NCBI GenBank assembly: GCA_963789955.1
Contig: CAWBMV010000034.1
Location: forward strand, 512,001-576,000
Length of the DNA stretch: 64,000 nucleotides
Reading direction: 5' to 3'
From: an uncultured Candidatus Rokubacteria bacterium
GTDB lineage: Bacteria > Methylomirabilota > Methylomirabilia > Rokubacteriales > CSP1-6
Part shown: positions 21,719-49,288 of the stretch, in pieces
How positions within the stretch are numbered: position 1 is the first letter of the stretch
How the letters are laid out: each line of letters opens with the position of its first letter
Notes under the pieces: generated by a model
The model's input: the letters and a program-made list of their open reading frames with translations, nothing else
What the model was told of the DNA's origin: nothing
Databases searched by the model: none
Translations under genes and position numbers: made by a program

Positions 21719-21725
21719 CTCGAGC

Positions 21726-23131: not shown

Positions 23132-25730
<2,599 letters not shown>

Positions 25731-25763
25731 TGCTCCGCTCTTCCTCTTTCTGAGATTGTCTCG

Positions 25764-30316: not shown

Positions 30317-30321
30317 TCGTC

Positions 30322-30350
30322 ATGCTAGCGTTGGGGGGCTATAGAGTCAA
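30322..30350 (-). promoter_or_regulatory. sigma70-type promoter for ftsH-degP
   Basis: TTGACT-N17-TAGCAT on the minus strand, 5 nt before ATG 30316. Confidence 0.7.
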
Positions 30351-30463: not shown

Positions 30464-32308
30464 TTGCGAGTTTCTGGTTCGGTAGTCGACGCGAAAAAGC
30501 GCCGTGCGGTCCGCCGGAGTGCCTGGACGGCTCTGGCAGTGGTGGCGCTCCTCACCTTGCTCTCGGCGCTCCCGGCGCTGGCCCAGGACGCGGCCAAAGA
30601 ACCGGCATACCGCGCATTCCCGCTGATCGGCTCGCGGCTGGCGGTCTGGGCGGTCGCCCAGCTCCATCTGAACTTCGCCGCCTTCATCCTCGGCGTGCCG
30701 ATCTTCGCCGTCATCATCGAGATCATCGGCTGGCGCACCCGTGACGCCCAGTACGACTGGCTCTCGCACGAGCTCGTCAAGCTGACGTTCGCGGCGTTCT
30801 CGACGACGGCGCTGCTGGGCGCGCTCCTCCTGTTCCTGTTCATCGGCTACTACCCGAAGTTCTGGACGTACATGACGTCGATCTTCTTCCCCACGTACGG
30901 GGTGTACGCCGGCCTGTTCTTCGCCGAGACCTTCACCGTCTACATCTGGTACTACGGCTGGGACTGGCTCAGCGGCTCTCGGAAATGGATCCACGTGAGC
31001 CTCGGCGTGCTGTCCAACCTCTTCGGGACCGCGATCCTCCTGGTCGCCAACTCCTGGGTGACGTTCATGATCTCGCCCGCCGGCGTCGACGACTCCGGCG
31101 CCTTGAAGGGCTCGGTGTGGGCGGCGATCAACAACTTCACCTGGATGCCGATCAACATCCACCGGCTCATCGCCAACATCGTCTTCGGCGGCACCATCTG
31201 CGCGGCGTACGCGGCGTTCCGCTTCCTCGGCGCCAAGACCGACGAGGAGCGGGCCCGCTACGACTGGATGGGGTACATCGGCAACTTCGTGGCCCTGTCG
31301 GCGTTCATCGTGCTGCCGTTCGCCGGCTACTACCTCGGCCGCGAGATCTACGCGTTCAACCAGACCATGGGCATCACGATGATGGGCGGCTTCATGTCCT
31401 GGCTCTGGATCATCCAGGCGATCCTGATCGGCGTGCTCTTCATGGGCTCGAACTACTATCTGTGGCTCGGCATGGAGCGCATCCCGGGCTCGGAGCGGTA
31501 TCGCCGCTACGTGCCGATGCTCATCGGCATCCTCGCGTTCGGCTTCATGGTCTGGGCGACGCCGCGCTCGATGGTCATCACGCTCGACGAGGCGCGCGCG
31601 ATGGGCGGCACTCACCATCCGTTGCTGGGCTTCCTCGGCGTCATGTCCGCGAAGAACACGGCCGTGAACATGATGATCCTGACGACGTTCCTGTCGTTCG
31701 TCCTCTACCGCCGCGCGAACAAGGTCTCGACCAAGTCGTGGGTCGGAATGGGTATGGCGATCCAGTGGGCCGCGCTCGGCGTCGCGGCGGCCATCGTCAT
31801 CTTCTTCGGCGTGTACGGCTACTTCGTCGAGTCGCTCGTGCGGATCGGGTTCTCGGTCTATCAGGTGCTCGCCGTGCTCGGCGCGATCTTCGTCGTGATG
31901 GCGATCGACATTCCCATGTTCAAGGGCGCCCGATCCACCGGGCTGATCCGCTGGGGCACGATCGCGCCGCGCTCGCAGTACGTGTTGATCCTGCTCGCGG
32001 TGACCTTCACCTGGCTCATGGGGCTGATGGGCTTCGCCCGCTCGGGCATCCGCCAGCACTGGCACGTCTACGGCGTCATGCGCGACAACTCGGTCGACGC
32101 GGTCACGCCCGCGATCGGGTACGCGTCCAACATGATCACGGTGGTCACCATCGCGTTCTTCCTGCTCGTGCTGTTCATCTTCTGGCTCGGCGGACTCGGC
32201 GAGAAGGGCAAGGCCGAGGCGCACGGCCACGCGGCGCCGGTCATCGCCGGCGGCAGCGACGCCTCGGCGGGGGAGCCGAGAGGGGGGCGGAGCCCCCTTC
32301 TCCCATAA
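30464..32308 (+). CDS. Cytochrome bd subunit I (CydA)-like membrane protein, non-canonical
   Basis: QLHLNFAAFILG (first heme His), F.AE..F.YIW.YGWD, ANSWVTFMISPAG, NIHRLIAN, C-terminal RSGIRQHWHVYGVMR (cf. CydA ExGRQPW). No cydB adjacent. Confidence 0.8.
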   Translation: MRVSGSVVDAKKRRAVRRSAWTALAVVALLTLLSALPALAQDAAKEPAYRAFPLIGSRLAVWAVAQLHLNFAAFILGVPIFAVIIEIIGWRTRDAQYDWLSHELVKLTFAAFSTTALLGALLLFLFIGYYPKFWTYMTSIFFPTYGVYAGLFFAETFTVYIWYYGWDWLSGSRKWIHVSLGVLSNLFGTAILLVANSWVTFMISPAGVDDSGALKGSVWAAINNFTWMPINIHRLIANIVFGGTICAAYAAFRFLGAKTDEERARYDWMGYIGNFVALSAFIVLPFAGYYLGREIYAFNQTMGITMMGGFMSWLWIIQAILIGVLFMGSNYYLWLGMERIPGSERYRRYVPMLIGILAFGFMVWATPRSMVITLDEARAMGGTHHPLLGFLGVMSAKNTAVNMMILTTFLSFVLYRRANKVSTKSWVGMGMAIQWAALGVAAAIVIFFGVYGYFVESLVRIGFSVYQVLAVLGAIFVVMAIDIPMFKGARSTGLIRWGTIAPRSQYVLILLAVTFTWLMGLMGFARSGIRQHWHVYGVMRDNSVDAVTPAIGYASNMITVVTIAFFLLVLFIFWLGGLGEKGKAEAHGHAAPVIAGGSDASAGEPRGGRSPLLP

Positions 32309-32309
32309 A

Positions 32310-33108
32310 ATGCGACTTCCGGTCGCGGTGAAGGTCGGGGCGTTCGCGCTCGTCGTGATGGGCAGCTACACGTACTACGCGAACTCGATTCCGCAGATCC
32401 AGTCGAAGCCTCCCGCAAGAGCTGTCGCTCGAGGGCGGCAACGTCACGACGGCCCAGCTCGTGAAGGCCGGCGAGGAGATCTTCCACACCAAGGGCACCT
32501 GCGAGATCTGCCATCGCATCGGCCAGAAGGGAACGCGCGCGCCCGATCTCGCGGGCATCGGCTCGCGCGCGGCCAAGACGAAGCCGGGCATGAGCGCCAA
32601 GCAGTACATCATCGAGTCGCTGCTGCAGCCGGGCGCCTACCTCGTCGAGGGCTACCCGAACATCATGCCGCAGATCGACAAGCCGCCGATCGCGCTCAAC
32701 CGCTCCGAGCTCTGGGCGCTCACGGCGTTCCTCGAGTCGCAGGGCGGCACGGCCGACGTCAAGCTCGACGACATCCCGAAGACCGCGGGCGCGTCGGCCG
32801 CCGGCGGCGCGCCGGCCGAGATCAAGCTGCCGGGCGACCCGAAGGCGGGCGAAGCCGTGTTCACGACGAAGGCCGGCTGCATCGCGTGCCACAAGGCGGG
32901 CAAGATCGGCGCCTCGCCGGTCGGCCCCGATCTCTCGCAGATCGCGAAGATCCAGACGCCCGACTACATCATGAAGAAGATCCTGGATCCCGCGGGCTCC
33001 GGGACGGTCGCGGGCTTCCCGAAGGGCGTGATGCCGCCGATGTTCGGCCAGACCCTGACGGCGAAGGAGTATATGGACCTGGTCTCGTTCCTGCTGACGC
33101 TCAAGTGA
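32310..33108 (+). CDS. Membrane-anchored diheme cytochrome c (frameshift near 32415)
   Basis: N-terminal TM segment, then CEICH...IMP and CIACH...GPDLS...VMP. Confidence 0.88.
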
Positions 33109-33112
33109 GGGC

Positions 33113-33866
33113 ATGAACTTCCTCCGCTCGCGCTTCGCCCAGGCGGTCCTCGTCCTCGTGATCGCCTTCGTGATCTTCCGCTTCGGCATCCGGCCGCCGG
33201 CGCCGTGGAGCGTGCTCACGCTCTACATGACGATCGTGCTCCTGGCGGTGCTCGTGTTCGTCTCGTCCGACTCCGACTCGTGGCGCGACTTCATGCGGCC
33301 GATCCGCACGACCCTGGTCGCGCCCGACAAGAAATTCACGCGCCTCGCGCTCCTGGTCATCGTGCCGCTCCTGCTCGGCTACTACGCGTACACGCAGGCC
33401 GCGGCCAAGCCGCAGGCGCCGCCGGAGCTGCGCGCCGTCCATCCCGCGCCGCCCGCGTCGATCCAGTTCCGCGGCAAGGAGATCCAGATCACGGGGTTGG
33501 ACAACCCGCTGCGCAAGGACCAGGCGAGCTTCAAGAAGCACGTGGCGGCCGGAGAAGAGATCTACATCCGCAACTGCATGTACTGCCACGGCGACAACCT
33601 GGATGGGAAAGGGCACTTCGCGCACGGCTTCAATCCGCCGCCGGCGAACTTCCAGGATCCGGGCACGATCGCGATGCTCCAGGAGGCATTTCTCTTCTGG
33701 CGCATCTCGAAGGGCGGACCCGGGCCTGCCCAAGGAGTCCACGCCCTGGAACTCGGTCATGCCGGCGTGGGAAGACCGCCTGACCGAGGAGCAGATCTGG
33801 CAGGTCATCATGTATCTCTACGACGCGACCGGTCAGCAGCCGCGGCGCTGGGAGACCGCGCATTGA
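33113..33866 (+). CDS. Membrane-bound monoheme cytochrome c (frameshift near 33722)
   Basis: Three N-terminal TM segments, CMYCHGD, FWRISKGG, then GLPKESTPWNSVMPAW in ORF 33603..33866. Confidence 0.85.
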
Positions 33867-35315
33867 GGGCCACCGTCCTCGCGGCCGCCGTCGTCGCCCT
33901 CGTCGTTCGCCGCGCCGGCGCTCGTCGGCGCGCAGGCCGGCGACGCGAACGCCGGCAAGGCCGTCTACCAGCTCAAATGCGTCGGCTGTCACGGCGACAA
34001 GGGCGACGGCAAGGGGCCGGCCGCCGAACTCCTCATGCCGCAGCCCCGCGACTTCACCTCGGGCATCTACAAGATCCGGACGACGGCCGGCAAGGCGCCG
34101 TCCGACCAGGACCTCTTCCGATCATCACCGACGGGATGCCCGGCACGTCGATGCCGCCGTGGGCGGTGCTTCCCGAGAAGGACCGCTGGAATCTCGTCGC
34201 GTACATCAAGGCGTTCGCGGCGGACAAGTTCAAGGAAGCGCCCAAGAAGCTCGAGCTGCCCAAGGAAGTCGCCTCGTCGGCGGAGTCGATCAAGCGCGGC
34301 AAGGAGATGTTCGAGGCGATCGAGTGCAACAAGTGCCACGGCACCGACGGGCGCGCCGACGGTCCGTCGCGCGCCGAGCTGAAGGACGAGTGGGGCCATC
34401 CGATCGCGCCGGCCAATCTCACCAAGCGGTGGACGTTCCGCGGCGGCGCGACGCGAACCGAGATCGCCACGCGGCTCGCCGCGGGGGTGCTCGGCACGCC
34501 GATGCCCATCGTTCATCGACAGCGTCGAGAAGCCCGAGGACATCTGGCACCTGACGAACTACATCCTGTCCCTGGGCCCGGACTCGCCGCACTACGCGAC
34601 GCTGGTCACGGTCACCGCCGTGTCGGACGCGATCCCCGACGACCCGAACGCCGACTTCTGGAAGAAGCTCACGCCCAACAACATCCCGCTGATGGGCCAG
34701 GTGATCGTCGATCCGCGGAACTTCAATCCGTCGATCGACCTCGTGTCGGTGCGCGCGGTCTACAACGACAAGGAGATCGCGTTCCACCTGACGTGGGACG
34801 ATCCGACCCAGTCGACCGACGATCCCGCGAAGAAGCTGTTCGCCGACGCGATCTCGCTGCAGTTCCCGCCGCAGCCCTCGTCCGGCACCGAGCGGCCGTA
34901 CTTCCTGATGGGCGACGCCTCGGACGCGGTCTATCTCCTGCGCTGGGAGAACGGCAAGGGCGTGACGGAGTCGACCGCGAACGGTCCGGCGAAGATCGCG
35001 GCGATCCCGGGGGCCGAAGCGGGCGGCAAAGCGGTGTACGCGAACGGCCAGTATCGCCTCGTGATGAAGCGCCCGCTGGTGTCGAAGGACGCCACGCGCC
35101 CGACGTTCTCGCCCGCGGCGTTCATGCCGGTCGCGTTCCAGGCCTGGGACGGCGGAGCAGGGGAGAGCGGGACTCGGATGTCGCTGACATCATGGTACTA
35201 TCTGCGGCTGGAGGAGCCGCAGTCGGGCCGTCGTTTCGTCATTCCTCCAGTCGTAGCCATCCTCACATTGGCGGTGATGTTGCTCGTGGTGCGAGTTGCG
35301 AATAGACGGGCATGA
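33863..35315 (+). CDS. Diheme cytochrome c fused to an ethylbenzene-dehydrogenase-gamma (EbdC/NxrC)-like domain with C-terminal TM anchor (several frameshifts)
   Basis: Signal peptide, KCVGCHGDKGDGKG..PRDF, GMPGTSMP, ECNKCHG..G, then VRAVYN..IAFHLTWDD, DAISLQFP, PYFLMGD, PVAFQAWDG. Confidence 0.78.
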
Positions 35316-35340
35316 CCCGAATTCAGGAGGATCAAGGGCA

Positions 35341-36042
35341 ATGCGTAAGGTAATCGGAACGCTTCTGGCGATCGCGCTCGTGACAGGCGTCGCCCTCGTC
35401 GCCAACCGCCCCGGACCGGCCGGAGCGCAGGGCGGCGGCACGATCGAGGCGACGGTGACGTATGCCGGGGCGCCGGTCGTCGAGAAGCTCAAGGTGAACA
35501 AGGACACCGAAAAGTGCGGGACCGAGGCGACGATCGAGAAGGTCGTCGTCGGCGCGAACAAGGGGCTGGCCAACGCCGTCGTGTCCGTTCCGGGCGCCAA
35601 GGGCGGCGCGCCGAAGGCAGTGAAGACGACGGTCGATCAGCACGGCTGCAAGTTCGTGCCGCACGTCAGCGCGATGACGCCGGGCGAGATGGATCTCAAG
35701 AACTCGGACGACATCCTGCACAACATCCATACGTACTCGACCGCGAATCCGTCCATCAACAAGGCCCAGCCGAAGTTCAAGAAGGTGATGGCCGAGAAGT
35801 TCGAGAAGCCGGAGATGATCAAGCTCACCTGCGACGTGCACAGCTGGATGCTCGGGTGGGTCGCCGTGATGCCGAATCCGTTCTTCGGCGTGACCGGCGC
35901 CGACGGCACCGCCAAGATCGAGAACGTCCCGCCCGGCAAGTACACGGTCGAGGTGTGGCACGAGACGCTCGGCAAGCAGACGAAAGAGGTCGAGGTCAAG
36001 GCCGGGCAGCCAACGAAGGTCGCGATCGAGATGAAGAAGTAA
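35341..36042 (+). CDS. Secreted cupredoxin / carboxypeptidase-regulatory-like domain protein, paralog 1
   Basis: Signal peptide; DQHGCKFVPHV, NSDDILHNIH, CDVHSWM (His + C-x2-H-x2-M), NVPPGKYTVEVWHE. Confidence 0.75.
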   Translation: MRKVIGTLLAIALVTGVALVANRPGPAGAQGGGTIEATVTYAGAPVVEKLKVNKDTEKCGTEATIEKVVVGANKGLANAVVSVPGAKGGAPKAVKTTVDQHGCKFVPHVSAMTPGEMDLKNSDDILHNIHTYSTANPSINKAQPKFKKVMAEKFEKPEMIKLTCDVHSWMLGWVAVMPNPFFGVTGADGTAKIENVPPGKYTVEVWHETLGKQTKEVEVKAGQPTKVAIEMKK

Positions 36043-36063
36043 GAGCCAGGAGGCTCGGCGAGC

Positions 36064-36786
36064 ATGCTTGACTGGTGGCTGCCGGAGAACGTTTCGACCT
36101 ACGGCCGGGACATCGACTGGCTCTTCCACCTCATCTACTACATCACCGGCGTCACGTTCATCCTGGTCTTCGCCACGATGCTGGCGTTCCTCGTGATGTA
36201 CCGGGACCGTCCGGGGCGGAAGGCGCGCTACACGCACGGCAACACCACGCTCGAGATCGTCTGGACGATCGTGCCGGCGCTGATCCTCGTCATCCTCACG
36301 CTTGCTCAGCGTGCCGGCGTGGTCGAAGATCAAGATGACGATGCCCGCAGACGGACTTCGTCGTGCAGGTGACCGCCAAGCAGTTCAACTGGGAGGTCGA
36401 CCTATCCCGGCGCCGACGGGAAGTTCGGCACCGACGACGACAAGATGCTGCTCGACGAGATGCACGTGCCGGTCAACAAGGTCGATCCGCGTCATCCTGA
36501 AGTCCCAGGACGTCATCCACAGCTTCTTCGTCCCGCAGTTCCGCTTCAAGCAGGACGCCGTGCCCGGCCGCGAGATCCGCGCGTGGTTCGAGGCGACCAA
36601 GCCCGGGCAAGTACGAGTTGCCGTGCGCCGAGCTGTGCGGCTTCGGCCACTCGGGCATGAAGGGCTGGATCTACGTGCACACGCCCGAGGAGTACGGCAA
36701 GTGGGCCGCCGAGAACTTGACGGTCGCGCGGCGGCGCCCGCCGCCGAGCGCGACGATCCTGAGGAGCGAGAGGAGAAAGCCAAGAG

Positions 36787-36790
<4 letters not shown>
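36064..36790 (+). CDS. coxB: Cytochrome c oxidase subunit II without cytochrome c domain (frameshifted)
   Basis: WLPENVSTYG..ID, HGNTTLEIVWT, KQFNW, DVIHSFF..KQDAVPG, CAELCGFGHSGM. Confidence 0.9.
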
Positions 36791-38578
<1,788 letters not shown>

Positions 38579-38593
38579 TCGAGAGGGCGACCG

Positions 38594-39591
38594 GTGGCCT
38601 ATCGTCTGGCGCTCGCCACCCTGGGCGCCACGTGTGTCCTCATCCTCTTGGGGGGACTGGTCACGAACACGGGCGCCGCGCTGGCGGTGCCCGACTGGCC
38701 GAGCACGTTCGGCTACAACATGGTTCTCTTCCCCTGGTCGAGGATGGTGGGCGGCATCCTCTACGAGCACAGCCATCGGTTGATGGGCGCGCTCGTCGGG
38801 CTGCTCACCCTGGCCCTGGCGGGGGCGCTCTGGCGTGAAGGCGGCCGGCTGCGGCGTCTCGGACTCGTCGCGGTGGCCGCCGTCGTCGCTCAGGGCGTGC
38901 TGGGCGGGCTCCGCGTCGTTCTCCTGCAGGACACGCTCGCGATCTTCCACGGATGCCTCGCCCAGGCGTTCTTCGCGCTGCTGGCGGTGATCGCGCTGCT
39001 GACGGCTCCGGGCGGCCGCGTCGCCGCTTCACCGGTCGAGCCCGCGCTGAAGGGCCTGGCGGTGCTCGCCGCCGTTCTCGTCTACGTGCAGATCGTGTTC
39101 GGCGCGCTCCTGACACACGCCGGACGCATCGACCTGCACCTGGCCGGGGCCGTTCTCGTGTTCGTCCTGGTCCCGATCGTCGCCGCGCAGCTTCGCCGGA
39201 CAGGCGATGCGGTGGCCGCGCCGGTGTCGCGACTCGTCGGCGTTCTGCTCGGCGTTCAGCTCCTGCTCGGCGTCGGCAGCTTCCTGGCGAGGTTCTCGTC
39301 GATCTGGATTCCGGGCGAGCAGCTGACGGTGCACGGCCCTGCCGGTCGCGCACCGGCTGATGGGTAGCCTGATTCTGGCGGCTTGCGTCGTCCTCGCGGT
39401 GAGAGTGAGTGTTGTCGCGGGGTTTGTTGTAGCGGGGGCGGGTCGACCGTGCAGCGAGCCGTCCATGAGGCCGCCGGCCGAAGGGTTGTCCGCCGAAACG
39501 CGAGCCGGCTCGCGTCTCTGCAGGCCACCCTCGGTCGAGCTGGCGCGTCGCGGACCCCGCTACAACCGATGCGATGGGGACCTTGCCATGA
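38594..39591 (+). CDS. ctaA: Heme A synthase, COX15/CtaA family (frameshift near 39330; 3' end uncertain)
   Basis: GGLVTNTGAALAVPDWP, EHSHRL, QGVLGG.RV, HGCLAQ, PVAHRL. Confidence 0.85.
39426..39566. repeat. REP/REPIN-like element between the ctaA core and ctaB
   Basis: Perfect 12-bp terminal inverted repeats GTTGTAGCGGGG / CCCCGCTACAAC and a central 18-bp palindrome ACGCGAGCCGGCTCGCGT (39498-39515). Confidence 0.65.
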
Positions 39592-40514
39592 CTCCACCCA
39601 CGCTCGAAACCGCGCGCGTCGGCGCGGACGCCGTCGTCGTCGGACTGGCGCGCGAACGCCTCCGGGTCGCCGCCGATCTGCTCGCCCTGACGAAGCCGCG
39701 CGTCGTCCTCATGGTGCTGGTGACAACCGTCGTCGGGTACTACGTCGGGCTGACGGGCGCGCCGGACTACGTTCGGCTCGTGCACCTGCTGATCGGCACG
39801 ATGCTGGCGGCCGGCGGCACGCTCGCGCTCAATCAGTACTGGGAGCGCGACGTCGACGCCCGGATGAATCGCACGCGCGTGCGTCCGCTCCCGGACGGTC
39901 GGCTCTCGCCGCTCGAGGCGCTCGTCTTCGCCACCGCCGTCACGGTCGCCGGCCTCGGCTACCTCGGCGCGTTCGTGGGAGGCCTGGCGCTGCTGGTGAC
40001 CGCGGCGACGACCGTGCTGTATCTCTTCGCCTACACGCCGCTCAAGCTCCGGACGCCGCTCTGCACGATCATCGGCGCGGTACCGGGCGCGCTGCCGCCG
40101 GTGACGGGGTGGGTGGCCTCGCGCGAAGGCTTCGGCCTGGGCGCCTGGGTGCTGTTCGGGATCCTGTTCCTGTGGCAGCTGCCGCACACCCTGGCGATCG
40201 CGCGTCTCTACCGCGACGACTACGCGCGCGCGGGTGTCCGTCTGCTGCCGGTGGTCGACGTCGACGGAACCTCGACCGAGCGGCAGATCGTCACCGGCTG
40301 CCTCGCGTTGCTCGCGGTCAGCCTGCTGCCGACCTTGATCGGCCTGGCGGGCCCGTTCTACTTCGTCGGCGCCTTCGTGCTCGGCGCGGCGTTCGTCGCG
40401 CTCGGCGCGCGTCAGGCGCTCGCGCCGTCACAGGGCTCGGCCCGGCGCGTCCTGTATGCGTCGTTGCTCTACCTGCCGATCCTGTTAGCGCTGCTCGCGT
40501 TCGACAAGGTATGA
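39588..40514 (+). CDS. ctaB: Protoheme IX farnesyltransferase (heme O synthase)
   Basis: LTKPRV, NQYWERDVDARMNRTR.RPLP, YTPLK, GALPP, WQLPH, DDYARAG. Confidence 0.95.
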   Translation: MTPPTLETARVGADAVVVGLARERLRVAADLLALTKPRVVLMVLVTTVVGYYVGLTGAPDYVRLVHLLIGTMLAAGGTLALNQYWERDVDARMNRTRVRPLPDGRLSPLEALVFATAVTVAGLGYLGAFVGGLALLVTAATTVLYLFAYTPLKLRTPLCTIIGAVPGALPPVTGWVASREGFGLGAWVLFGILFLWQLPHTLAIARLYRDDYARAGVRLLPVVDVDGTSTERQIVTGCLALLAVSLLPTLIGLAGPFYFVGAFVLGAAFVALGARQALAPSQGSARRVLYASLLYLPILLALLAFDKV

Positions 40515-40610
40515 CCAGCGACGCGCGGAACCGGCAAATCCTGCAAGATCATCCTGACGATCGTCGGGGCGCTCATCGTCTCGTCGTTCCTCGTCGGAAT
40601 TCGCTGGTGA
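40511..40610 (+). CDS. Small single-TM protein (~32 aa, one extra base), absent from the ORF track
   Basis: MTSDARNRQIL(+1)KIILTIVGALIVSSFLVGIRW*; ATGA overlap with ctaB and GTGA overlap with coxC. Confidence 0.55.
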
Positions 40611-41270
40611 CGACGCTCACCGTCGAGCGCCCGCGGCGGGCCAACGGACGCGTTCCGCCGACTCCACCGCCGACCGGCGGGGGCGACGGCTTCGAGCGCG
40701 AGCCGGGACCGCGCCGGCCGCTCCTCGACAACGTCCGGCTGGCGATGCTGTTCCTGATCTGCGGCGGAGGTCATGTTCTTCGGAGGCCTCGTCTCGGCGT
40801 TCCTGGTTCTGCGGGTGAGCGCCGCGCAGTGGCCGCCTCCGTTGCAGCCGCGCCTGCCGGTCGGCGTGACCGGCGTCAACACCTTGGTCCTGCTCGCCTC
40901 GAGCGTCGCCATGGTCGCGGCGATCCGCGCGCTCGAACGGCACGACTCGAGGGCGCTCGTGCGACGCCTGCTGATCGCCGGCGGGCTCGGCGCCGCGTTC
41001 CTGCTCGTGCAGGGCTACGAGTGGATTCGCCTCGTCAGCTACGGGCTCACGATGGCATCGGGCGCCTACGGGACGACCTTCTATACCGTGATCGGAACGC
41101 ACGCGGCGCACGTGGTCGCGGCGGTCGTCTGGGTCGGCGTCACCGTGATGCTCGCCGCCCGCGACCGTTTCCTCGACGGCCGGGCGGGCGCCTTGCGCGC
41201 GTGCGCGATCTACTGGCACTTCGTCGTCGCGCTGTGGCCGATTCTCTACGTGGCGGTGTACGTCGTATGA
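40607..41270 (+). CDS. coxC: Heme-copper oxidase subunit III, short form, copy 1 (frameshift near 40765)
   Basis: LAMLFLI..E.MFFGGL, NTLVLLASS, Q.YEW, FYTVIGTHAAHV, YWHFV. Confidence 0.88.
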
Positions 41271-41494
41271 AGATCATGGCGGTGGCCGGGCTGGCTTCGA
41301 TCGCGACGCCGAGGGCGGCGCTGGCGTGCGCGACGTGCATCAGCTCGCCGTTCGGCGATCAGTCGTACAACTGGCCCTATCTCGGACTCATCCTGTTGCC
41401 GTTCGGTCTGATCGTCGCGATCGTCGGCATCCTCGGATATCACGCCTACTTCGGCGCCAAGGAAGACCCTCGGATCATCAAGGAGACGACATGA
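41267..41494 (+). CDS. Small exported membrane protein with N-terminal CxxC (75 aa)
   Basis: MKIMAVAGLASIATPRAALA-CATC...one TM segment; ATGA overlaps with both neighbours. Confidence 0.65.
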   Translation: MKIMAVAGLASIATPRAALACATCISSPFGDQSYNWPYLGLILLPFGLIVAIVGILGYHAYFGAKEDPRIIKETT

Positions 41495-42108
41495 GTCAGG
41501 CAGCCGCGATACACGGGGCGGTCGAGCCCGCCGAATCGCCGGTCACCCCAGAGAGCTGGGGAAAGCTCGGGATGTGGATCTTCCTGGCGGGCGACGCCGT
41601 CGGTTTCGGGACCTTGCTCGCCGGCTACGGCGCGATGCGGGCGACCAGCGCCGACTGGCCGTCGCCGTACGACGTCCTCGGCATCAACCTGACCGCCCTG
41701 ATGACCTTCCTGCTCATCTGCTCGAGCGTGACGATGGTGAAGGCGCTCGAGTGGCTCGGCAAGGGGGACAAGGGCCGCGCTCAGAATTATCTCTTCTATA
41801 CGGCGCTCGGCGGCGCGATCTTCGTGAGCCTCCAGGCCTACGAGTGGACGCACCTGATCCATCGCGGCCTGCATATCAACGGCAACCCGTGGGGCGCCTC
41901 GCTCTTCGGCACGTCGTTCTTCCTGGTGACGGGCTTCCACGGCTTGCACGTGACCGGCGGCGTCATCTATCTGCTCTCGATCCTGCGAGTCGTCGCGCGG
42001 CGCCCGTCGCCGGCGGCGAGCTACAACGCGGTCGAGATCGCCGGCCTGTACTGGCACTTCGTCGACCTCGTCTGGATCATGGTGTTCACCTTCATGTACC
42101 TCCTGTAG
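41491..42108 (+). CDS. coxC: Heme-copper oxidase subunit III, short form, copy 2
   Basis: GKLGMWIFLAGD, TFLLICSS.TMV, QAYEW, TGFHGLHV, GLYWHFVDLVWI. Confidence 0.92.
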   Translation: MSQAAAIHGAVEPAESPVTPESWGKLGMWIFLAGDAVGFGTLLAGYGAMRATSADWPSPYDVLGINLTALMTFLLICSSVTMVKALEWLGKGDKGRAQNYLFYTALGGAIFVSLQAYEWTHLIHRGLHINGNPWGASLFGTSFFLVTGFHGLHVTGGVIYLLSILRVVARRPSPAASYNAVEIAGLYWHFVDLVWIMVFTFMYLL

Positions 42109-42120
42109 GGGGTCGAAGCG

Positions 42121-42447
42121 ATGGCGAGCGAGCACAAGCATCCGAACTACATGGCGATCTTCTGGTATCTCGCGATCCTCACCGTGGTCGAGATCGCGGT
42201 GATCTACCTGCCGCTGGGGAAATTCACGATCGGCGTGCTGCTGTGCGCCCTGGCTCTCACCAAGGCGACGATGGTCGCGATGTATTTCATGCACCTCAAG
42301 TTCGAGACGCGGACTCTCGGCCTGGTCGCCATCACGCCGCTCGCGATCGCCACCTTGCTGATCTTCGTGCTGCTGCCGGACGGATTCGCCGTCATGAAGC
42401 GGACGGCCGACGTCAAGGCGGCCACGACCGAGCCCGCGAAGCACTGA
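42121..42447 (+). CDS. coxD: Cytochrome c oxidase subunit IV (prokaryotic COX4 family)
   Basis: Y..IF..LAILT.VE, KATMVAMYFMHLKFE. Confidence 0.88.
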   Translation: MASEHKHPNYMAIFWYLAILTVVEIAVIYLPLGKFTIGVLLCALALTKATMVAMYFMHLKFETRTLGLVAITPLAIATLLIFVLLPDGFAVMKRTADVKAATTEPAKH

Positions 42448-42478
42448 GTGCGCGGCCCAGACGCCGGCAGCGGGAGCG

Positions 42479-42847
42479 ATGGAATCGCAGCGACTGGCCG
42501 ACCGCGTCACGCGGGCCCTGGGCCGGGCGATCCGCTTGCGCTGTCCGCGCTGCGGGGCGACGCCGCTCTTCCGCGGCTGGTTCCGGATGGCGGAGTCGTG
42601 CGCGCTGTGCGGACTCCGGTTCGAGCGGGCGCAGGGCTACTTCGTCGGCGCGATCTACATCAACTACGCGGTGACGACGCTCATCGCGGTCGGCGGGTTC
42701 TTCCTGCTGTGGGGCCAGTTCGGGCTCTCCACGCAGGCTCAGCTCCTCGTGCTGGTGCCGATCGTGGTCGTGTTCCCGCTGTGGTTCTTCCGCTACAGCC
42801 GGAGCTTCTGGCTCGCGCTGGAGTGGTCGCTCAACAGCGAGCCCTGA
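42479..42847 (+). CDS. DUF983-family membrane protein
   Basis: RCPRCG..PLF, C..CGL.FER..GYF, two TM segments. Confidence 0.85.
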   Translation: MESQRLADRVTRALGRAIRLRCPRCGATPLFRGWFRMAESCALCGLRFERAQGYFVGAIYINYAVTTLIAVGGFFLLWGQFGLSTQAQLLVLVPIVVVFPLWFFRYSRSFWLALEWSLNSEP

Positions 42848-43591
42848 CCGCCGCCGCGGCCTTCGGCCTCATGATCCTGGTCGCGACGCCGGCCGGCGCC
42901 TACGAGGTCGCCGCCGTCCAGGACGGCGGCACGATCACCGGCACCGTGAAGTTCGTCGGCGCGCTGCCGAAGCTCGACCCGATCCCCGTCAGCAAGAACC
43001 GCGACGTGTGCGGCGAGCGCAAGGCGTCGGAGGCGCTCGTGCTGTCCGCCGAGAGGGGTGTCAAGGGCGGCGTCGTGCTGATCGCGGGCGTGGCGCGCGG
43101 CAAGAAGCGCGGCCGGCGACGTGGTGCTGGACAACAGCCAGTGCGTCTTCGTGAGCCACGTGACGGCGGCCGCGCTGACGGAGCGGGTGTCGATCCGGAA
43201 CTCCGACCCGATTCTCCACAACACCCACGGCTTTCGCGGCACGCCGACCGCGTTCAACGTCGCGCTGCCGACGAAGGGTCAGATGATCGAGGTCACGAAG
43301 TATCTCAAGAGCCCGGGCGTGATCCGCGTGCTGTGCGACGCGCATCCGCACATGTTCGCGTGGCTGATCGTGCACGACAGCCCGTACTTCGCCGTCACCG
43401 ACGACCAGGGCACGTTCAGCATCGGCGACGTCCCGCCGGGGACCTACAAGGTCACGATGTGGCACGCCGGCTTCCGGCCCAGGGGCGCCGACAAGGACGG
43501 CCGGCGGACCTATGACGAGCCGCGGACCGTGACGCGCGAGATCACGGTCGCGCCGAAGGCGACCGCGACGGTCGACTTCGAGCTGAAGTAG
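42823..43591 (+). CDS. Secreted cupredoxin / carboxypeptidase-regulatory-like domain protein, paralog 2 (frameshift near 43110; start approximate)
   Basis: GGTITGTV, VCG, DNSQCVFVSHV, NSDPILHNTH, CDAHPHM, DVPPGTYKVTMWH. Confidence 0.72.
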
Positions 43592-43684
43592 CAGGCATTC
43601 GGTGGTGCGCGCGGCGAGTCGTCGCGGGGCGGGGGCCCGCCGGCCGACGCGCGCGTATAGCGCGTATAGATAGAGGGGGACTTC

Positions 43685-45592
43685 ATGTTCAAGCACATCT
43701 GCGTACCGGTGGACAACTCGGACTGCTCGAACCGCGCGATCGACCTGGCGGTCGAGCTCGGCCGATCGTTCGGCGCCCGACTCACGGGCGTGCACGTGTA
43801 CGCGGCGCGGCTGCACGACTACCGGTTCAAGCAGATGGAGTACACGCTGCCCGAGGAGTACAAGGACGAGAACGAGCTCGAGCGCCAGCGCAAGATCCAC
43901 GACTCGCTCATCGCGATGGGCCTGCAGCTCATCTCGGAGTCGTATCTGGACGTGATGGCGAAGAAGGCCGTCGAGGCCGGGCTCGACTTCGAGCCCAAGA
44001 TGATCGACGGCAAGCACTACAAGGTCCTGATCGAGGACACGCTCGCCTCCGACTACGATCTGGTCGTCATGGGTGCCCTCGGCATGGGCGCGGTGAAGGA
44101 CAGCCAGATCGGCTCGGTCACCGAGCGCTTCGTCCGCCGGGTGAGCCGCGACACGTTAATTGTCCGGAACGCCGATGCGCTGAAGGATCGGGAGGGCGCG
44201 ATCGTCGTCTGCCTCGACGGCTCGCCGCAGTCGTTCAACGGCCTGAAGCTCGGCATCGCGCTCGCGGCGGCGCTCCACCGGCCGCTGCAGGCCGTCGCCG
44301 TCTACGACCCGTACCTGCACTACGCGATGTTCAACGGCATCGTCGGTGTGCTGAACGAGAAGGCGTCGAAGATCTTCCGCTTCAAGGAGCAGGAGCAGCT
44401 GCACGAGGAGATCATCGACACCGGGCTCGCCAAGATCTACCAGTCGCACCTCGAGATCGGCCGCAAGCTCGCCGCCGACGCGGGGGTCGAGCTGGCCATC
44501 ACCTTGCTCGACGGCAAGTGCTTCGAGAAGATCCTGACGTTCGCCCGCAAGGAGCAGCCGTGGCTGCTCATCCTCGGACGGGTCGGGGTGCACTCGGACG
44601 AGCACGAGACCGATCTCGGCTCCAACACCGAGAACATCATGCGGCTGGCGCCGTGCAACGTGCTCCTGACCGGCGGCAAGTTCTACCCGCCGCTCGACGT
44701 GAAGGCCGAGGAGATCATCTCGTGGACCGAGGAGGCGGAGGCGCGGATGGAGCGGGTGCCGCCCCAGGTCAAGGGTGTCGCCCGGACCGCGCTCCTGCGC
44801 TACGCGATCGAGCAGGGGCACACCGTCATCACCAACAAGGTGATCGACGAGGCGATGGCGATCTTCATGCCGACGCGGATGGCCGAGCGGATGCAGATCC
44901 TGGCCGAGGACGTCGCGGTGGCCAAGCTGCGCACCGAGTCCCAGCCGGCGACGGCGATCTGCTCGATCTGCGGCTACACGGTCAAGGGACCGAACCCGGT
45001 CGTCACGTGTCCGGTCTGCAAGGCCGCCCCCGACAAGTTCCAGATCATCTCGAAGGAAGCGGTGGAAGCGATCGCGACTCAGGAAGGCGGCGTCGAGTCC
45101 GAGGAGTCGATGCCGGGCGTGCAGGTGAAGTGGTCGGCCGAGGCGCGCGACGCGCTGCGCGAGGTCACCGACGCCTATCTGCGGCGCCGCGCGAAGGCGC
45201 GGGTCGAGAAGTACGCCCGCTCGCGGAAGATCCCGGTCATCACCTGCCAGCTCGCGTTGCCGATGATCGAGGAAACGGTCGGCCGTGAGAAGCTCGGCGC
45301 CGGCTGGGACACGTTGCTCGCCAGGACGAAGTTCGAGCCGGCCGACATGCCCGCGGTCCCGTCGAGCGAGGCCGGCACCGGCTTCGGCTGGACCGAGGAC
45401 GCGACCGCGCGGCTCAATCGCGTGCCGGCCGGATTCATGCGCGACATGACGCGCGAGGAAGTGGAGCGTGTGGCGTCCTCCAAGGGCGTGACCGTCATCG
45501 ATCTCGCCGTCTGCGAGGAGGGGATCGGGCACGCTCGCGAGACCATGAACGAGGTGATCGCCGGGTACGTATCGAATAAGAAACCGCGATAA
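43685..45592 (+). CDS. Multidomain protein: two universal-stress domains, a rubredoxin-like finger and three PCP_red-like domains
   Basis: MFKHICVPVDNS...DLVVMGALG..IGSVTE; IVVCLDGS...GRVG..LGSNTE; CSICG-x8-CPVC; three W-x-x-[ED]-A..R/E-V repeats. Confidence 0.8.
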   Translation: MFKHICVPVDNSDCSNRAIDLAVELGRSFGARLTGVHVYAARLHDYRFKQMEYTLPEEYKDENELERQRKIHDSLIAMGLQLISESYLDVMAKKAVEAGLDFEPKMIDGKHYKVLIEDTLASDYDLVVMGALGMGAVKDSQIGSVTERFVRRVSRDTLIVRNADALKDREGAIVVCLDGSPQSFNGLKLGIALAAALHRPLQAVAVYDPYLHYAMFNGIVGVLNEKASKIFRFKEQEQLHEEIIDTGLAKIYQSHLEIGRKLAADAGVELAITLLDGKCFEKILTFARKEQPWLLILGRVGVHSDEHETDLGSNTENIMRLAPCNVLLTGGKFYPPLDVKAEEIISWTEEAEARMERVPPQVKGVARTALLRYAIEQGHTVITNKVIDEAMAIFMPTRMAERMQILAEDVAVAKLRTESQPATAICSICGYTVKGPNPVVTCPVCKAAPDKFQIISKEAVEAIATQEGGVESEESMPGVQVKWSAEARDALREVTDAYLRRRAKARVEKYARSRKIPVITCQLALPMIEETVGREKLGAGWDTLLARTKFEPADMPAVPSSEAGTGFGWTEDATARLNRVPAGFMRDMTREEVERVASSKGVTVIDLAVCEEGIGHARETMNEVIAGYVSNKKPR

Positions 45593-45728
45593 GCGCGGGC
45601 GAGGGGGTGGGGTGCCTCCCCGGCGCCGACTGCTTACCTTCGGGTGCGGTTGGTCTCCATGTTCCGCGTGACTGCGACCGCTGCCTACACGGCGCCGGGG
45701 AGGCACCCCCACCCCCTCGCCCGCGCTT
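45591..45728. mobile_element. MITE/REPIN-like element with 38-39 bp terminal inverted repeats
   Basis: 45591-45628 is the reverse complement of 45690-45728 except for one G in a homopolymer; 61-nt core; intergenic. Confidence 0.65.
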
Positions 45729-45778
45729 CCATGGATCCCGCGCGCTGCGCCCGCGTCTTCGACCACGGGTCGCGCCGT

Positions 45779-47212
45779 ATGACCGATACCTCGATCTCCG
45801 CGCGCCACGCGGAGCCCGCCTTGCCTGCGAACGTGGCTCGGCGGCGGCCGTATACGGCGTATTCCGTGTCGTGGAATTTGACGCAGCGGTGCAATCTCGA
45901 GTGCGCGCATTGTTATATGTCGGCGTTCGCGGGGGCCGATACGCGCGGCGAGCTTTCGACCGACGAGTGCCGGCGGGTGATGGACGAGATCGCGCTCGTC
46001 AATCCCAATGTCTTCCTGATTCTGACCGGGGGAGAGCCGCTGCTTCGAAAGGACATCTGGGAGATCGCGGGCTATGCCGCGGAGAAGCGATTCACGACGG
46101 TGCTCGGGACGAACGGCGTGCTCCTGCGCGAGCGCGAGGCGAAGGCGATGCGGACGCACGGCGTCCTCGGCGCCTCGATCAGCCTCGACTCGACCGACCG
46201 CGCCAAGCACGACGCGTTTCGGCACCTTCCGGGCTCCTGGGACGGCGCGGTGCGCGCCACGCGTGTCCTGACCGACGCCGGACTCGATTTCTCGCTCCAC
46301 ATGTCGGTGACCGACTGGAACGTGGGTGAGGTGCCCGCGATGATCGATCTGGCGCGGCAGCTCGGCGCCAAGGTGCTGAACTTCTTCTTCCTGGTCAGGA
46401 CGGGACGCGGCCAGAACCTCACCGACATCGACCCGGCGGCCTACGAGCGCATCCTGAACTATCTCGCCCGGGTTCAGGGTGTCGGCGGCGGACCGCCGTC
46501 GTTCGTGCGGTCATTGCTCGGAATGGGCGAGCGACGCCCGGCGGGCGGCTCGCAGGGGTTCGAGGATCCCTGGTCGACACCGGTCGGGCGGAGCGACGGA
46601 CTCCTGATCCGCGCGAAGTGCGCGCCGCACTTTCGCCGGGTCCTCTACGAGCTGAATCCGTCGTCGCCGCTGCTCCGCAACTACGCGCACGGCTCGTGTC
46701 CGGCCGGCAAGTACTACTGTCGCATCACGCCCGAGGGCGACGTGACGCCGTGCCCGTACATGCCGGTCACCGCCGGCAACCTGCGCCAGCACTCCTTCGC
46801 CGACCTCTGGCGCGGCGCGCCGGTGTTCGCCGACCTGCGCGATCCGAAGCTCGGCGGACGATGCGGCGCCTGCGAGTTCTCGAAGATCTGCGGGGGATGC
46901 CGCTGCCGCGCTTACGCGACGCACGGCGACTACCTCGCCGAGGATCCGGCGTGCGGCTACCAGCCGGGCGGGCACGGCGGCGCCTTGATCGATCTGCCGG
47001 CCTCGCTCACGTTCGGGCTGCCGATCGACTACCAGCTCGTGTGGGACGAGGACGCGCGCGCGCGCCTGCAGGCCATTCCGTCGTTCGCGCGGGGGATGGT
47101 CATCAAGGCGGTCGAAGCCTACGCGCGCGGGCGGGGCGACACGACGATCACGAAGGAGCTGCTCGCGGACGTGCGCTCGAAGTGGGGCTCGCGCTTCCGC
47201 GCCTCGTCCTGA
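45779..47212 (+). CDS. Radical SAM/SPASM enzyme (NirJ/AhbC/AhbD-like) with C-terminal PCP_red-like domain
   Basis: SWNLTQRCNLECAHCY, LTGGEPLLR, HDAFR, KCAPHF, CPAG..YCRITPEGDVTPCPY, CGACEF..ICGGCRCRAY, EDP.C. Confidence 0.85.
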   Translation: MTDTSISARHAEPALPANVARRRPYTAYSVSWNLTQRCNLECAHCYMSAFAGADTRGELSTDECRRVMDEIALVNPNVFLILTGGEPLLRKDIWEIAGYAAEKRFTTVLGTNGVLLREREAKAMRTHGVLGASISLDSTDRAKHDAFRHLPGSWDGAVRATRVLTDAGLDFSLHMSVTDWNVGEVPAMIDLARQLGAKVLNFFFLVRTGRGQNLTDIDPAAYERILNYLARVQGVGGGPPSFVRSLLGMGERRPAGGSQGFEDPWSTPVGRSDGLLIRAKCAPHFRRVLYELNPSSPLLRNYAHGSCPAGKYYCRITPEGDVTPCPYMPVTAGNLRQHSFADLWRGAPVFADLRDPKLGGRCGACEFSKICGGCRCRAYATHGDYLAEDPACGYQPGGHGGALIDLPASLTFGLPIDYQLVWDEDARARLQAIPSFARGMVIKAVEAYARGRGDTTITKELLADVRSKWGSRFRASS

Positions 47213-47637
47213 TGGATCGGTTCCGCCTCGCGTCCCGCGCGTATCTGGTCTATGGCGTGGTCTACTGGATCGGCGGGCTCTATCTCGCCACGCAGGGCGT
47301 GGGCGTCCGCGGCGGACGCATGATGCAGGCGGGTGTCGCGTGGATCGTCATCGGACTGGTGCTGGTGGCGGCGATCCCGTATCTGCTCGCTCGGCGTCGA
47401 GCGTGGTTCGAGCGCTGGATCCTCTCGCGCCGCGACTTCGCGCGCGTGCTGACGGCGTTCATGGCCTTTCGGGCCTGGCACGTGCTGAGGGTGGCGCTCC
47501 GCCCGGAGACCGCGAGTATCGCGGCGCCCTGGGGCGGCGAGATCACCTTCCGTGCCGGCGCGATCGTCTTCCTGATCGTCACCGTGACCGCGCTGCTCCT
47601 GATCGGACGCGCGGCCTGGGCGAAGGAGGCTCCGTGA
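47212..47637 (+). CDS. Hypothetical 4-TM membrane protein
   Basis: C-terminal part of ORF 46618..47637 from MDRFRLASRAYL; TGATG and GTGA overlaps with neighbours. Confidence 0.7.
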   Translation: MDRFRLASRAYLVYGVVYWIGGLYLATQGVGVRGGRMMQAGVAWIVIGLVLVAAIPYLLARRRAWFERWILSRRDFARVLTAFMAFRAWHVLRVALRPETASIAAPWGGEITFRAGAIVFLIVTVTALLLIGRAAWAKEAP

Positions 47638-48579
47638 AGCGCTACAAGGACATCGCCGGCGACGGCGGCTCGAACATCGCGGGCCAGGTCGAGGCCCAGC
47701 AGGGCCGGCTGAAGAAGCGGCTCGAGTCGGTCCGGGCAATCGTCGCGATCGTCTCCGGCAAGGGCGGTGTGGGAAAATCGACGCTCACGGCGAGCCTGGC
47801 CTGCGCCTTCGCCCTCGACGGCTCGAAGGTCGGCGTGCTCGACGCGGATCTCAACGGCCCGACGCAGGCCAAGGTCCTGGGCGTGCGCGGCCGGCGCCTG
47901 GTCATCGCCGACGGTGTCGTCGAGCCGCCGGCCACGGACCTGGGCGTGAAGGTGATGTCGATGGACCTGCTGCTGCCGACCGACGCCGCGCCGCTCACCT
48001 GGGATGCGCCGGTGCAGGACGAGGCGCACACGTGGCGCGGCGCCATGGAGGCGAATGCGCTCCGCGAGTTCCTGGCGGACACCGAACTGGGGCACGCTCG
48101 ACCTCTTGCTGCTCGATCTGCCGCCCGGCACCGACCGGCTCGCGACGATCGCGTCGCTCGTCCCGACGCTCTCGGGAATCGTGGTCGTGACGATCCCGTC
48201 CGACGTGTCGCATCTGGTGGTGAGACGATCGATCACGGTGGCGGCCAACACGCGGGCGCCGGTGCTCGGGCTGGTCGAGAACATGTCCGGCCTCTTCGTG
48301 GGGCCCGACGCCTCCAGGCTCGCCGCGGACGCCGGGATCCCCTTCCTCGGCAGCGTGCCGTTCGATCGGGCGCTCGCCGTCGCCGGCGATCAGGGCGATC
48401 CGTTCGTCGCCAGCGCGCCGGAGCGCATGGCCGCGATGGCTCTCAGGCGAATTGCCGAGGGAATCCGCAGCCGCGCTGGCCCCGCGGCCGGTGTGATCGC
48501 GGTCGGACAAAGAAATCGGCCCCGGACAGAGCCGGGGCCGAGGCGTATCCGCGAGAGAGTTTTCTCTACTGGCAGTTGA
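47634..48579 (+). CDS. Mrp/ApbC/NBP35 P-loop ATPase (frameshift near 48090; 3' end uncertain)
   Basis: SGKGGVGKST, LDADLNGP, VMSM, DLPPGTD, GLVENMS, FLGSVPFD. Confidence 0.88.
48510..48541 (-). terminator. Intrinsic terminator between convergent units
   Basis: TCGGCCCCGG / CCGGGGCCGA stem, with AAGAAA on the + strand giving a U-tract on the minus strand. Confidence 0.65.
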
Positions 48580-49261: not shown

Positions 49262-49288
49262 TCGTGTTTTTCATGCGTGACACAGGTG

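Follow-up and report, generated by a model that had tools for sequence, protein, structure and literature searches.

Organization of the gene cluster

The subject of this study is a respiratory gene cluster of an uncultured Rokubacteria bacterium, located at positions 30464-48579 of a stretch of 64,000 nt (hereafter, the window; G000:C34:512001-576000) of its genome, G000, which is represented by an assembly of 6.77 Mb in 38 contigs with a completeness of 87%. The cluster opens with the gene of a CydA-like, that is, cytochrome bd-like, membrane haem protein and three genes of membrane-anchored cytochromes c, which together are referred to below as the module, and it continues with the genes of an aa3 haem-copper oxidase. 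Because the G+C content of the window is ~68%, long stop-free frames occur in every frame and the length of an open reading frame (ORF) is little informative. We therefore read the gene list via the intact locus of a same-genus relative, L021 (G013:C100), and mapped the coordinates to the window.

Pfam searches of the window frames and of L021 indicate a string of genes co-oriented on the + strand, as had been proposed in an earlier annotation made from the nucleotide sequence alone (hereafter, the sequence-only reading), and in the order given there: the CydA-like gene, the three cytochrome c genes, a cupredoxin gene, coxBA, ctaAB, two coxC genes, coxD, and the genes of a DUF983 protein, a second cupredoxin, a USP fusion, a radical SAM enzyme and Mrp. 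When read via the intact same-genus relatives, these are 17 genes rather than the about 20 counted before. The gaps between them are mostly shorter than 30 nt, and those leading from the module to the first cupredoxin gene and on to coxB are of 2-25 nt. The absence of cydB and of Rieske, cytochrome b or Act genes from the cluster was confirmed by Pfam in the window and in L021. Ten of the 17 genes are broken in this record by private insertions or deletions (indels), while seven are free of them.

The CydA-like protein

The gene of the CydA-like protein (614 aa; 30464..32308, + strand) is intact in the record. Its product matches PF01654 with 60.5 bits (cut-off 26.2), and its AlphaFold model (pLDDT 70.4, pTM 0.69) comprises 13 transmembrane (TM) helices and an N-terminal signal-like helix; the layout of 14 helices was also examined by hydropathy. 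Solved CydA structures are the best fold matches of this model, with 5ir6_A at the top (Z 19.5, root-mean-square deviation (rmsd) 3.4, 323 residues aligned) and 7d5i_A, 6rko_A and 9r2g_A behind it (Z 18.9; 312-325 residues aligned over the CydA chains). The next fold class is CydB (Z 14.5), and matches to ActF of alternative complex III (ACIII) and to PsrC (Z 12.5-13.5) lie at the noise level stated by the tool for helical bundles. A phmmer search of the Protein Data Bank (PDB) with the single protein found nothing, whereas a profile of 13 homologues did match solved CydA, with a significant alignment only over about the first six helices, ending near residue 257. Aligned by profile to 9r2g_A, the protein has His68 and His233 at the ligand histidines (equivalents of His19 and His186), and Glu155 takes the place of the channel glutamate of solved CydA (Glu107); in the alignment to 5doq_A, His68 matches and His233 is one residue off. 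The position of the other channel glutamate is occupied by an invariant tyrosine (Tyr148). Residues H68, E155, H177, H233, H385, M394 and H534 are invariant in 41 CydA-like sequences.

The Q-loop is missing from the model, in which helix 6 is followed by further helices and helices 5-7 are joined by short turns. No internal repeat was detected by hhalign of the N-terminal against the C-terminal half (probability 0.3%). Neither CydB (PF02322; searched in the cluster and in the 87%-complete genome) nor a second PF01654 gene (searched in the genome) was found. The profile and fold matches thus predict a protein of the cytochrome bd superfamily with the CydA fold and, as judged from the lack of a Q-loop in the model and of CydB, not a quinol-oxidising bd oxidase of the CydAB kind. 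Its features, namely no quinol site, 14 helices and accompanying genes of c-type cytochromes, fit the OR-N family, and more specifically its 14-helix N1/N2 type. Proteins of this kind are numerous: a profile search returned 1844 representatives at 50% identity and, among 8000 candidates scored, at least 6615 clusters at 90% identity. Their genes are routinely mislabelled as "cytochrome bd ubiquinol oxidase subunit I".

Cytochromes and cupredoxins of the cluster

All five CxxCH motifs listed in the sequence-only reading were recovered, at positions 32500, 32878, 33575, 33978 and 34325; they are distributed over three frames because of the private indels. The first two (CEICH, CIACH) belong to a membrane-anchored dihaem cytochrome c (32310..33108, + strand; one private insertion at 32417), whose counterpart in the relative (L021:2819-3613) matches Pfam Cytochrom_C twice and which has two CxxCH motifs in 68 of 68 homologues. 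The third (CMYCH) lies in a monohaem cytochrome c with two N-terminal TM helices (33113..33866, + strand; one private insertion at 33725), and a single motif is present in all of its 70 homologues. The last two (CVGCH, CNKCH) are those of a dihaem cytochrome c fused to a haem b domain similar to EB_dh and to the gamma subunit of type II DMSO reductases, with a C-terminal TM anchor (33877..35315, + strand; private indels). In the relative (L021:4382-5839), this fusion protein matches Cytochrom_C twice, EB_dh with 75 bits and TIGR03477 with 113 bits, the last of these being below the cut-off. The numbers of CxxCH motifs in the three cytochromes of the module are thus fixed at 2, 1 and 2, and profile matches of the CcoP/FixO kind occur among them. 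The EB_dh/DMSO-reductase-gamma-like domain with its TM anchor is conserved in the module.

Both cupredoxins named in the sequence-only reading were confirmed, since the ligand set His/Cys/His/Met is present in 41-42 of 42 sequences. The first, encoded by an intact gene directly behind the module (35341..36042, + strand), consists of a cupredoxin domain with a CDVHSWM loop and a CarboxypepD_reg beta-sandwich, and the second (42852..43591, + strand; one private insertion) is a cupredoxin-like protein with CarboxypepD_reg and a CDAHPHM loop. In the case of the AlphaFold model of the first cupredoxin (pLDDT 86.9), the best 50 Foldseek rows of the PDB are all cupredoxins (E from 2.5e-5), for example, plastocyanin 7pcy (target TM score 0.70, rmsd 2.8). 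Amicyanin profile matches of the first cupredoxin are weak (E 0.035-0.4), and a protein atlas search with the cupredoxin returned only clusters of its own kind. Conserved ligands and the modelled fold place these proteins among type 1 copper proteins, with copper binding predicted.

Conservation and genomic context of the module

Relatives of the CydA-like protein are encoded in 340 stretches of a species-level genome collection, the best 80 loci of which were examined, and the protein is present in 37 of 41 related genomes. All 39 close loci and all 22 distant ones for which at least 4.5 kb is available downstream have the three cytochrome genes behind the CydA-like gene. The linkage of the module to cox genes suggested by the sequence-only reading proved to be recurrent. 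Among close loci with at least 8 kb downstream, coxA is present within 8 kb on the same strand in 30 of 31. Of the 18 distant loci that extend for at least 8 kb to either side, 15 have it within 10 kb, 13 of these upstream of the module (12 on the same strand) and two downstream; if the set is widened to the 20 distant loci that reach 8 kb or more in the upstream direction, coxA is upstream in 15, on the same strand in 14 of these. Many of the distant loci are from Rhodothermales and hence are not independent. According to a FastTree tree, the arrangement of cox genes follows the phyla: the Methylomirabilota clade and Poribacteria have them downstream, Rhodothermota, Acidobacteriota and one Calditrichia locus have them upstream, and one locus each of Calditrichia, a Gammaproteobacterium and Myxococcota has none nearby (L069, L098 and L106 are the loci without nearby cox genes). 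At least six phyla keep the four-gene module, and in most of the loci examined there are A-type cox genes close to it. Genomes with an unlinked module still have COX1 genes in five of five cases, so a search for module genomes devoid of a haem-copper oxidase was not discriminating.

Four of the distant loci were annotated in full view of their neighbouring genes. In the Poribacteria metagenome-assembled genome (MAG), L107:3081-21890 encodes on the + strand a Rieske protein, a split cytochrome b, a 1052-aa multihaem cytochrome c, the bd-like module, a cupredoxin, an ABC transporter and coxBA-ctaA. The Gammaproteobacteria MAG (L098:1-13902) carries two tandem four-gene bd-like modules with a gene of a FixO-like cytochrome between them, two cupredoxin-like genes in front and no haem-copper oxidase within 10 kb; over two stretches, the CydA-like protein of the first module shares 52% and 45% identity with that of the window. 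In the Calditrichia and Rhodothermales loci, the module is followed by genes of radical SAM, USP/PCP_red, Mrp and a PCP_red protein.

Radical SAM, USP and Mrp genes

The last three genes of the cluster encode a fusion of tandem USP, three PCP_red and rubredoxin-like domains (43685..45592, + strand; Pfam), a radical SAM/SPASM enzyme of the AhbD/NirJ2 kind with a C-terminal PCP_red domain (45646..47212, + strand; Pfam) and an Mrp/NUBPL-type iron-sulfur carrier ATPase (47475..48579, + strand; PF10609, with private insertions at 48082 and 48468). The radical SAM enzyme scores 302.9 bits with NirJ2 and 295.8 bits with AhbD, under the cut-off of 500 in both cases; by these profile scores it would be nearest to the AhbD and NirJ families and a member of neither. 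The Mrp gene matches MrpORP with 198.6 bits, below the cut-off. Of 19 distant loci, 15 have a radical SAM gene, 15 a USP gene and 13 an Mrp gene behind the module, and an ortholog of the radical SAM enzyme is present in four of five further module genomes. The radical SAM/PCP_red/Mrp set accompanies the module, not the cox genes; in Rokubacteria, the cox operon sits between the module and this set. A role of the radical SAM enzyme as a general haem synthase is not favoured, since ferrochelatase and a ChdC-like gene are encoded elsewhere in the genome.

A small stand-alone PCP_red protein is encoded after Mrp in the Calditrichia (L069:20313-20873) and Rhodothermales (L075:21172-21633) loci, which makes its gene the fourth PCP_red-bearing gene of the set.

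Haem-copper oxidase genes

The oxidase genes of the cluster start with coxB (36064..36790, + strand; five private insertions, COX2_TM and COX2 in two frames), which encodes a CuA subunit II with no fused cytochrome c; its CuA motif CAELC is at 36624 (CAELC..H..M in the window), and the CoxB of the relative matches TIGR02866 with 174.8 bits, above the cut-off. The following coxA gene (subunit I; 36793..38578, + strand) has 30 private insertions and a GHPEV motif at 37630, which we take to be the D-channel motif of A1-type oxidases; CoxA of L021 matches COX1 with 508 bits and TIGR02891 with 633.6 bits, just under the cut-off of 670.75. The subunit I and II matches, the CuA ligands and GHPEV assign the predicted oxidase to A1-type haem-copper cytochrome c oxidases. 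Further downstream on the + strand are genes of haem A synthase, ctaA (38594..39591; PF02628, three private insertions), and of the UbiA family haem O synthase, ctaB (39588..40514; PF01040, 176 bits), two copies of coxC (40607..41270, with one private insertion, and 41488..42108; both PF00510), coxD (42121..42447; COX4_pro, PF03626) and the gene of a DUF983 zinc-ribbon protein with a CxxC...CxxC pattern (42479..42847; PF06170).

A second haem-copper oxidase locus, which is intact, is present at the left edge of the window, on the minus strand (1-1933, reaching left to G000:C34:511814). It comprises COX1 (490 bits at C34:511814-513046) and a COX2 gene (995-1933).

Frameshifts in the window sequence

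The cluster region is collinear with those of four same-genus relatives (~78-93% nucleotide identity), none of which has the ~50 one- or two-base insertions of the window. A five-way alignment revealed 70 indel events specific to the window, 62 with a length that is no multiple of three; they are nearly all single-base insertions, with no large deletions, and are densest at 36300-38510. Besides the 30 insertions of coxA, there are five in coxB, three in ctaA, two in each of the third cytochrome (cytc_C), radical SAM and Mrp genes, and one in each of four other genes. In effect, Pfam finds the CydA-like gene, the USP fusion and ctaB intact in the window frames, while coxB is spread over two frames and COX1 over eight as a result of the private indels. 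ORFs 32310-33116, 33113-35305 and 39383-41494 are partly out-of-frame readings, and the translations of the first two alternate between protein-like text and out-of-frame text rich in Arg, Gly and Pro.

Many frameshifts in these genes could suggest that coxB, coxA and several others are true pseudogenes and that the organism keeps only the bd-like module of the cluster, a reading that we find extremely improbable. The 45-46 extra bases at 36300-38510 come without extra substitutions: the substitution identity of this segment to the closest relative is 92.6%, compared to 93.0-94.6% in the flanks and to 92.2% between two intact relatives. The changes are almost exclusively insertions, and only 14 of 50 inserted columns adjoin the same base, so homopolymers are not the main source of these errors. 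Four public runs yielded contigs that lack, among the rows listed, the extra letters at 36485, 36602, 37065, 37128, 37143, 37326, 37447, 37512, 37700, 37793 and 37795, and carry the base that is missing from the window behind 38272. The same split pattern recurs in other conserved genes of the assembly, namely, two more COX1 loci, ActD and the gamma-glutamyltranspeptidase gene, and the errors are concentrated where the genes are most conserved and the summed metagenome depth reaches several hundred. Decay of coxBA was accordingly rejected on the grounds of the unchanged substitution identity and of the public contigs. As the insertions are private to this assembly, the breaks are likely consensus errors of a long-read assembly and not signs of gene decay, and we therefore take the genes to be intact in the organism. 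In long-read MAGs, conserved genes may be hit by local bursts of insertion errors and then look like pseudogenes.

Two other sites of the window drew our attention in this respect. The gamma-glutamyltranspeptidase gene (19892-22043) extends over two overlapping frames (profile positions 2-347 and 377-510), probably due to a frameshift error. On the minus strand, ClpB domains and an MFS transporter share one stop-free frame of 1345 codons (21726-25763), which reflects either the lack of a stop between two genes or another indel.

Boundaries of the cluster and its presence in RNA libraries

The genes upstream of position 30464 (ftsH, htrA, dnaJ and clpB) are reversed, and since the nearest of them, ftsH (28402-30338), is on the minus strand, the string starts at a divergent intergenic region. 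The single promoter-like site placed there by the sequence-only reading was not recovered: a consensus scan gave no site on the + strand, and its sole match, on the minus strand (30350-30322), is not above expectation (one match against a mean of 1.6 in shuffled sequence). No convincing intergenic + strand terminator was found in the string, and no Rfam family was found in the window. Contigs from RNA libraries of two studies cover 30 of 30 bins of the cluster with at least 90% likeness, and possibly derive from relatives or from DNA; single contigs span the junctions of cytc_C with the cupredoxin gene (35196-35508) and of coxA with ctaA (38457-39109).

The convergent end of Mrp and of a minus-strand ORF (48566-49270) bears a GC-rich hairpin of 10 bp (48516-48541) with a T run behind it on the minus strand, at which transcription arriving from either side may terminate.

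Relation of the module to complex III

It had been proposed that the CydA-like protein and the cytochromes occupy the slot of complex III, and that their occurrence should be anti-correlated with that of bc1 or ACIII. Linkage to cox genes agrees with the former, while a replacement of complex III does not follow from our data: ACIII is present, the Q-loop is absent, and the module occurs also without nearby cox genes. The predicted anti-correlation was not supported. ActD, a marker of ACIII, was found in 35 of 41 relatives, among them this genome itself, and cytochrome b in 19 of 41 (it was not found in the 87%-complete genome G000), so that 36 of 37 genomes with the module have one or the other. 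In the Poribacteria locus, the Rieske and cytochrome b genes are even directly upstream of the module, contrary to the prediction. In each of five near-complete relatives, which have four COX1 genes each, ACIII is near none of them; it may therefore serve all the oxidases, and its presence alone does not exclude a further quinol oxidase. On the whole, the complex-III-replacement reading is not favoured.

The ActD gene of G000 (G000:C6:443375-443894) is split into two frames, while the best match is in a single piece in 34 relatives. The EB_dh match of the module fusion protein is the only one in this genome, and no nitrite oxidoreductase (NXR) or other type II DMSO-reductase alpha subunit was found near the cut-off in the 87%-complete genome (best score 116 bits vs. 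984.75).

Possible function of the module

Tentatively, we would regard the module as an oxygen reductase that is fed by cytochromes c and cupredoxins and is co-expressed with the aa3 oxidase, and we favour such a role over those of a quinol:cytochrome c oxidoreductase and of an electron hub. The occurrence of the module apart from cox genes, its own radical SAM/USP/Mrp companions, the cbb3-like set of mono- and dihaem cytochromes c and the classing of OR-N proteins as oxygen reductases (10.1101/2021.01.16.426971) speak for it. From the gene content, its conservation and linkage, the fold, the loss of the Q-loop and the presence of ACIII, we infer a path of electrons, a site of O2 reduction and a cofactor role that might be as follows. 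Quinol would be oxidised by the ACIII encoded elsewhere in the genome, and the electrons would reach the periplasmic face and enter the haem c/haem b/copper wire of the cluster, which may comprise five c haems and a b haem of the EB_dh type, besides two type-1-copper-like proteins. From this wire they could pass either to CuA of the aa3 oxidase or into the CydA-like protein, in which a haem at His233/Met394 would relay them to a high-spin haem at His68 as the site of O2 reduction; the protons needed there would arrive past Glu155. The USP/PCP_red protein, the AhbD/NirJ-like radical SAM enzyme and Mrp possibly make or deliver a haem cofactor for the module.

Several points speak against the oxygen-reductase role. 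The RNA-library contigs cover the cluster but show neither transcription nor a single transcript. The equivalent of the haem ligand Glu445 appears to be Ser527, according to a weak, non-significant alignment. As CoxB has no cytochrome c domain, the cytochromes of the cluster may simply be its donors. To our knowledge, no OR-N protein has ever been purified, and two terminal oxidases in one operon are unusual, whereas genes of complexes III and IV are commonly found together. In addition, a cluster of the same kind is reported from the anaerobic anammox bacterium Kuenenia, where it was proposed to communicate with the quinone pool (PMC3578206, PMC6606698). Both the oxidase and the complex-III-like readings have already appeared in print as speculation.

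The CydA-like protein and the cytochromes could instead form a third kind of quinol:cytochrome c (or quinol:cupredoxin) oxidoreductase, which would feed CuA of the adjacent aa3 oxidase and yield a self-contained branch from quinol to O2. This would be in line with the cox linkage in several phyla, in differing arrangements, with the tight order of module, cupredoxin and coxB genes, with the lack of a c domain in CoxB and with the location of ACIII apart from all COX1 genes in the five near-complete relatives, as well as with the ActF and PsrC fold matches, noise-level as they are. A quinone-pool role was also speculated on by Lucker et al. 2013 (PMC3578206) and Mundinger et al. 2019 (PMC6606698). 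We nevertheless consider it rather unlikely, because the Q-loop is missing here, and PMC3578206 reports the same, together with the loss of all canonical quinol-binding residues, for such proteins. Moreover, the module coexists with complex III in nearly all genomes, directly beside Rieske/cytochrome b genes in Poribacteria, it occurs without nearby cox genes as well, and the equivalents of His19 and Glu107 of the O2 site are invariant. The buried set of invariant His and Glu residues of the CydA-like protein would be left unexplained if the module were an electron hub, or docking platform, that takes electrons from periplasmic dehydrogenases via the EB_dh haem b and passes them to aa3 or, in reverse, to quinone. 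The conservation of the anchored EB_dh/DMSO-reductase-gamma-like domain is compatible with such a platform, and both an NXR anchor and reverse electron flow have been proposed for the NXR-linked clusters of nitrite oxidisers and anammox bacteria (PMC6606698, PMC3578206). The fact that neither another EB_dh gene nor a type II DMSO-reductase alpha near the cut-off was found in the 87%-complete genome makes a hub appear distinctly unlikely. A bolder version, which we consider unlikely, would combine the bd-like module, the two cupredoxins and aa3 into one hybrid supercomplex on a shared cytochrome c/blue-copper wire, with the bd-like part either oxidising quinol at a new, Q-loop-independent site or reducing O2 with a haem tailored by the radical SAM enzyme. 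If true, it would give the widespread OR-N family its first defined function, whichever the outcome.

Proteins of the OR-N/bd-like kind are abundant in soil and sediment bacteria and are assumed to be the terminal oxidase of nitrite oxidisers. The operon of the Rokubacteria type unites the module and its carriers of copper and haem with a normal aa3 oxidase and with candidate genes for haem maturation in one transcription-sized unit, and this single gene string makes the question of oxidase, complex III substitute or hub directly testable by expression.

Comparison with known systems

A limited literature search returned nothing on bd-like proteins with radical SAM companions, and nothing that links bd-like oxidases to aa3 operons, Rokubacteria, Gemmatimonadetes, Rhodothermus, Poribacteria or Methylomirabilis. 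The closest described proteins are the OR-N oxygen reductases, which, according to their description, have no quinol site, are encoded beside alternative electron donors and have 14 helices in N1 and N2 (Murali, Gennis and Hemp, 10.1101/2021.01.16.426971). In Nitrospirales, an OR-N2 protein similar to NIDE0901 is named as the likely terminal oxidase, and some cultivated members are stated to have only oxygen reductases of the OR-N type (PMC12342949). The Rokubacteria protein resembles the bd-like oxidase of Nitrospira in being a CydA homologue that keeps the N-terminal helices of the haem/O2 site, has 14 helices and no quinol site, and is accompanied by c-type cytochromes instead of CydB. It differs in that it is present in a single copy, with no second CydA-like protein in the 87%-complete genome, while Nitrospirales are said to pair N2 with N1. 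It is also encoded inside an aa3 operon, in a heterotrophic-looking soil Rokubacteria genome.

The NXR-linked clusters of Nitrospina, Nitrospira and Kuenenia are a further close counterpart. Lucker et al. 2013 described a 14-helix bd-like protein, mono- and dihaem cytochromes c, an alternative NxrC, two cupredoxin-like proteins and a zinc finger protein as conserved in these three genera, and suggested that the set might work like ACIII (PMC3578206); Mundinger et al. 2019 described a putative complex IV cluster and a second cluster proposed to act in reverse electron flow (PMC6606698). The parts list is the same as that of the cluster analysed here, including an anchored NxrC-like EB_dh haem b protein (PMC3578206, PMC6606698). 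In contrast, searches of the Rokubacteria genome for NXR or other type II DMSO reductases gave none near the cut-off, the EB_dh protein bears two c haems, and an entire aa3/ctaAB operon is inserted between the parts. The TO_1 terminal oxidase of Candidatus Manganitrophus consists of the same parts, a bd-like protein, two cytochromes c together with a periplasmic cytochrome b, and its cluster is expressed at the 98th percentile; this organism is a lithotroph, and the accessible part of the report mentions no linked haem-copper oxidase (10.1101/2021.11.15.468770).

Two further systems share the logic of the Rokubacteria cluster rather than its components. In the cbb3 oxidase CcoNOP, the membrane catalytic subunit is likewise served by one mono- and one dihaem anchored cytochrome c, but the predicted catalytic subunit of the module has the bd fold and not the haem-copper fold. 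In gene strings in which ACIII precedes caa3, a quinol-side module and an oxidase are encoded together, with a blue copper protein or a cytochrome c as the go-between. They would be the functional analogue of the cluster in its complex-III-like reading, as in both cases a quinol-side module and an oxidase would share one gene string; here, however, ActB and ActC (molybdopterin-like or NrfD) are absent from the string, and ACIII is encoded separately.

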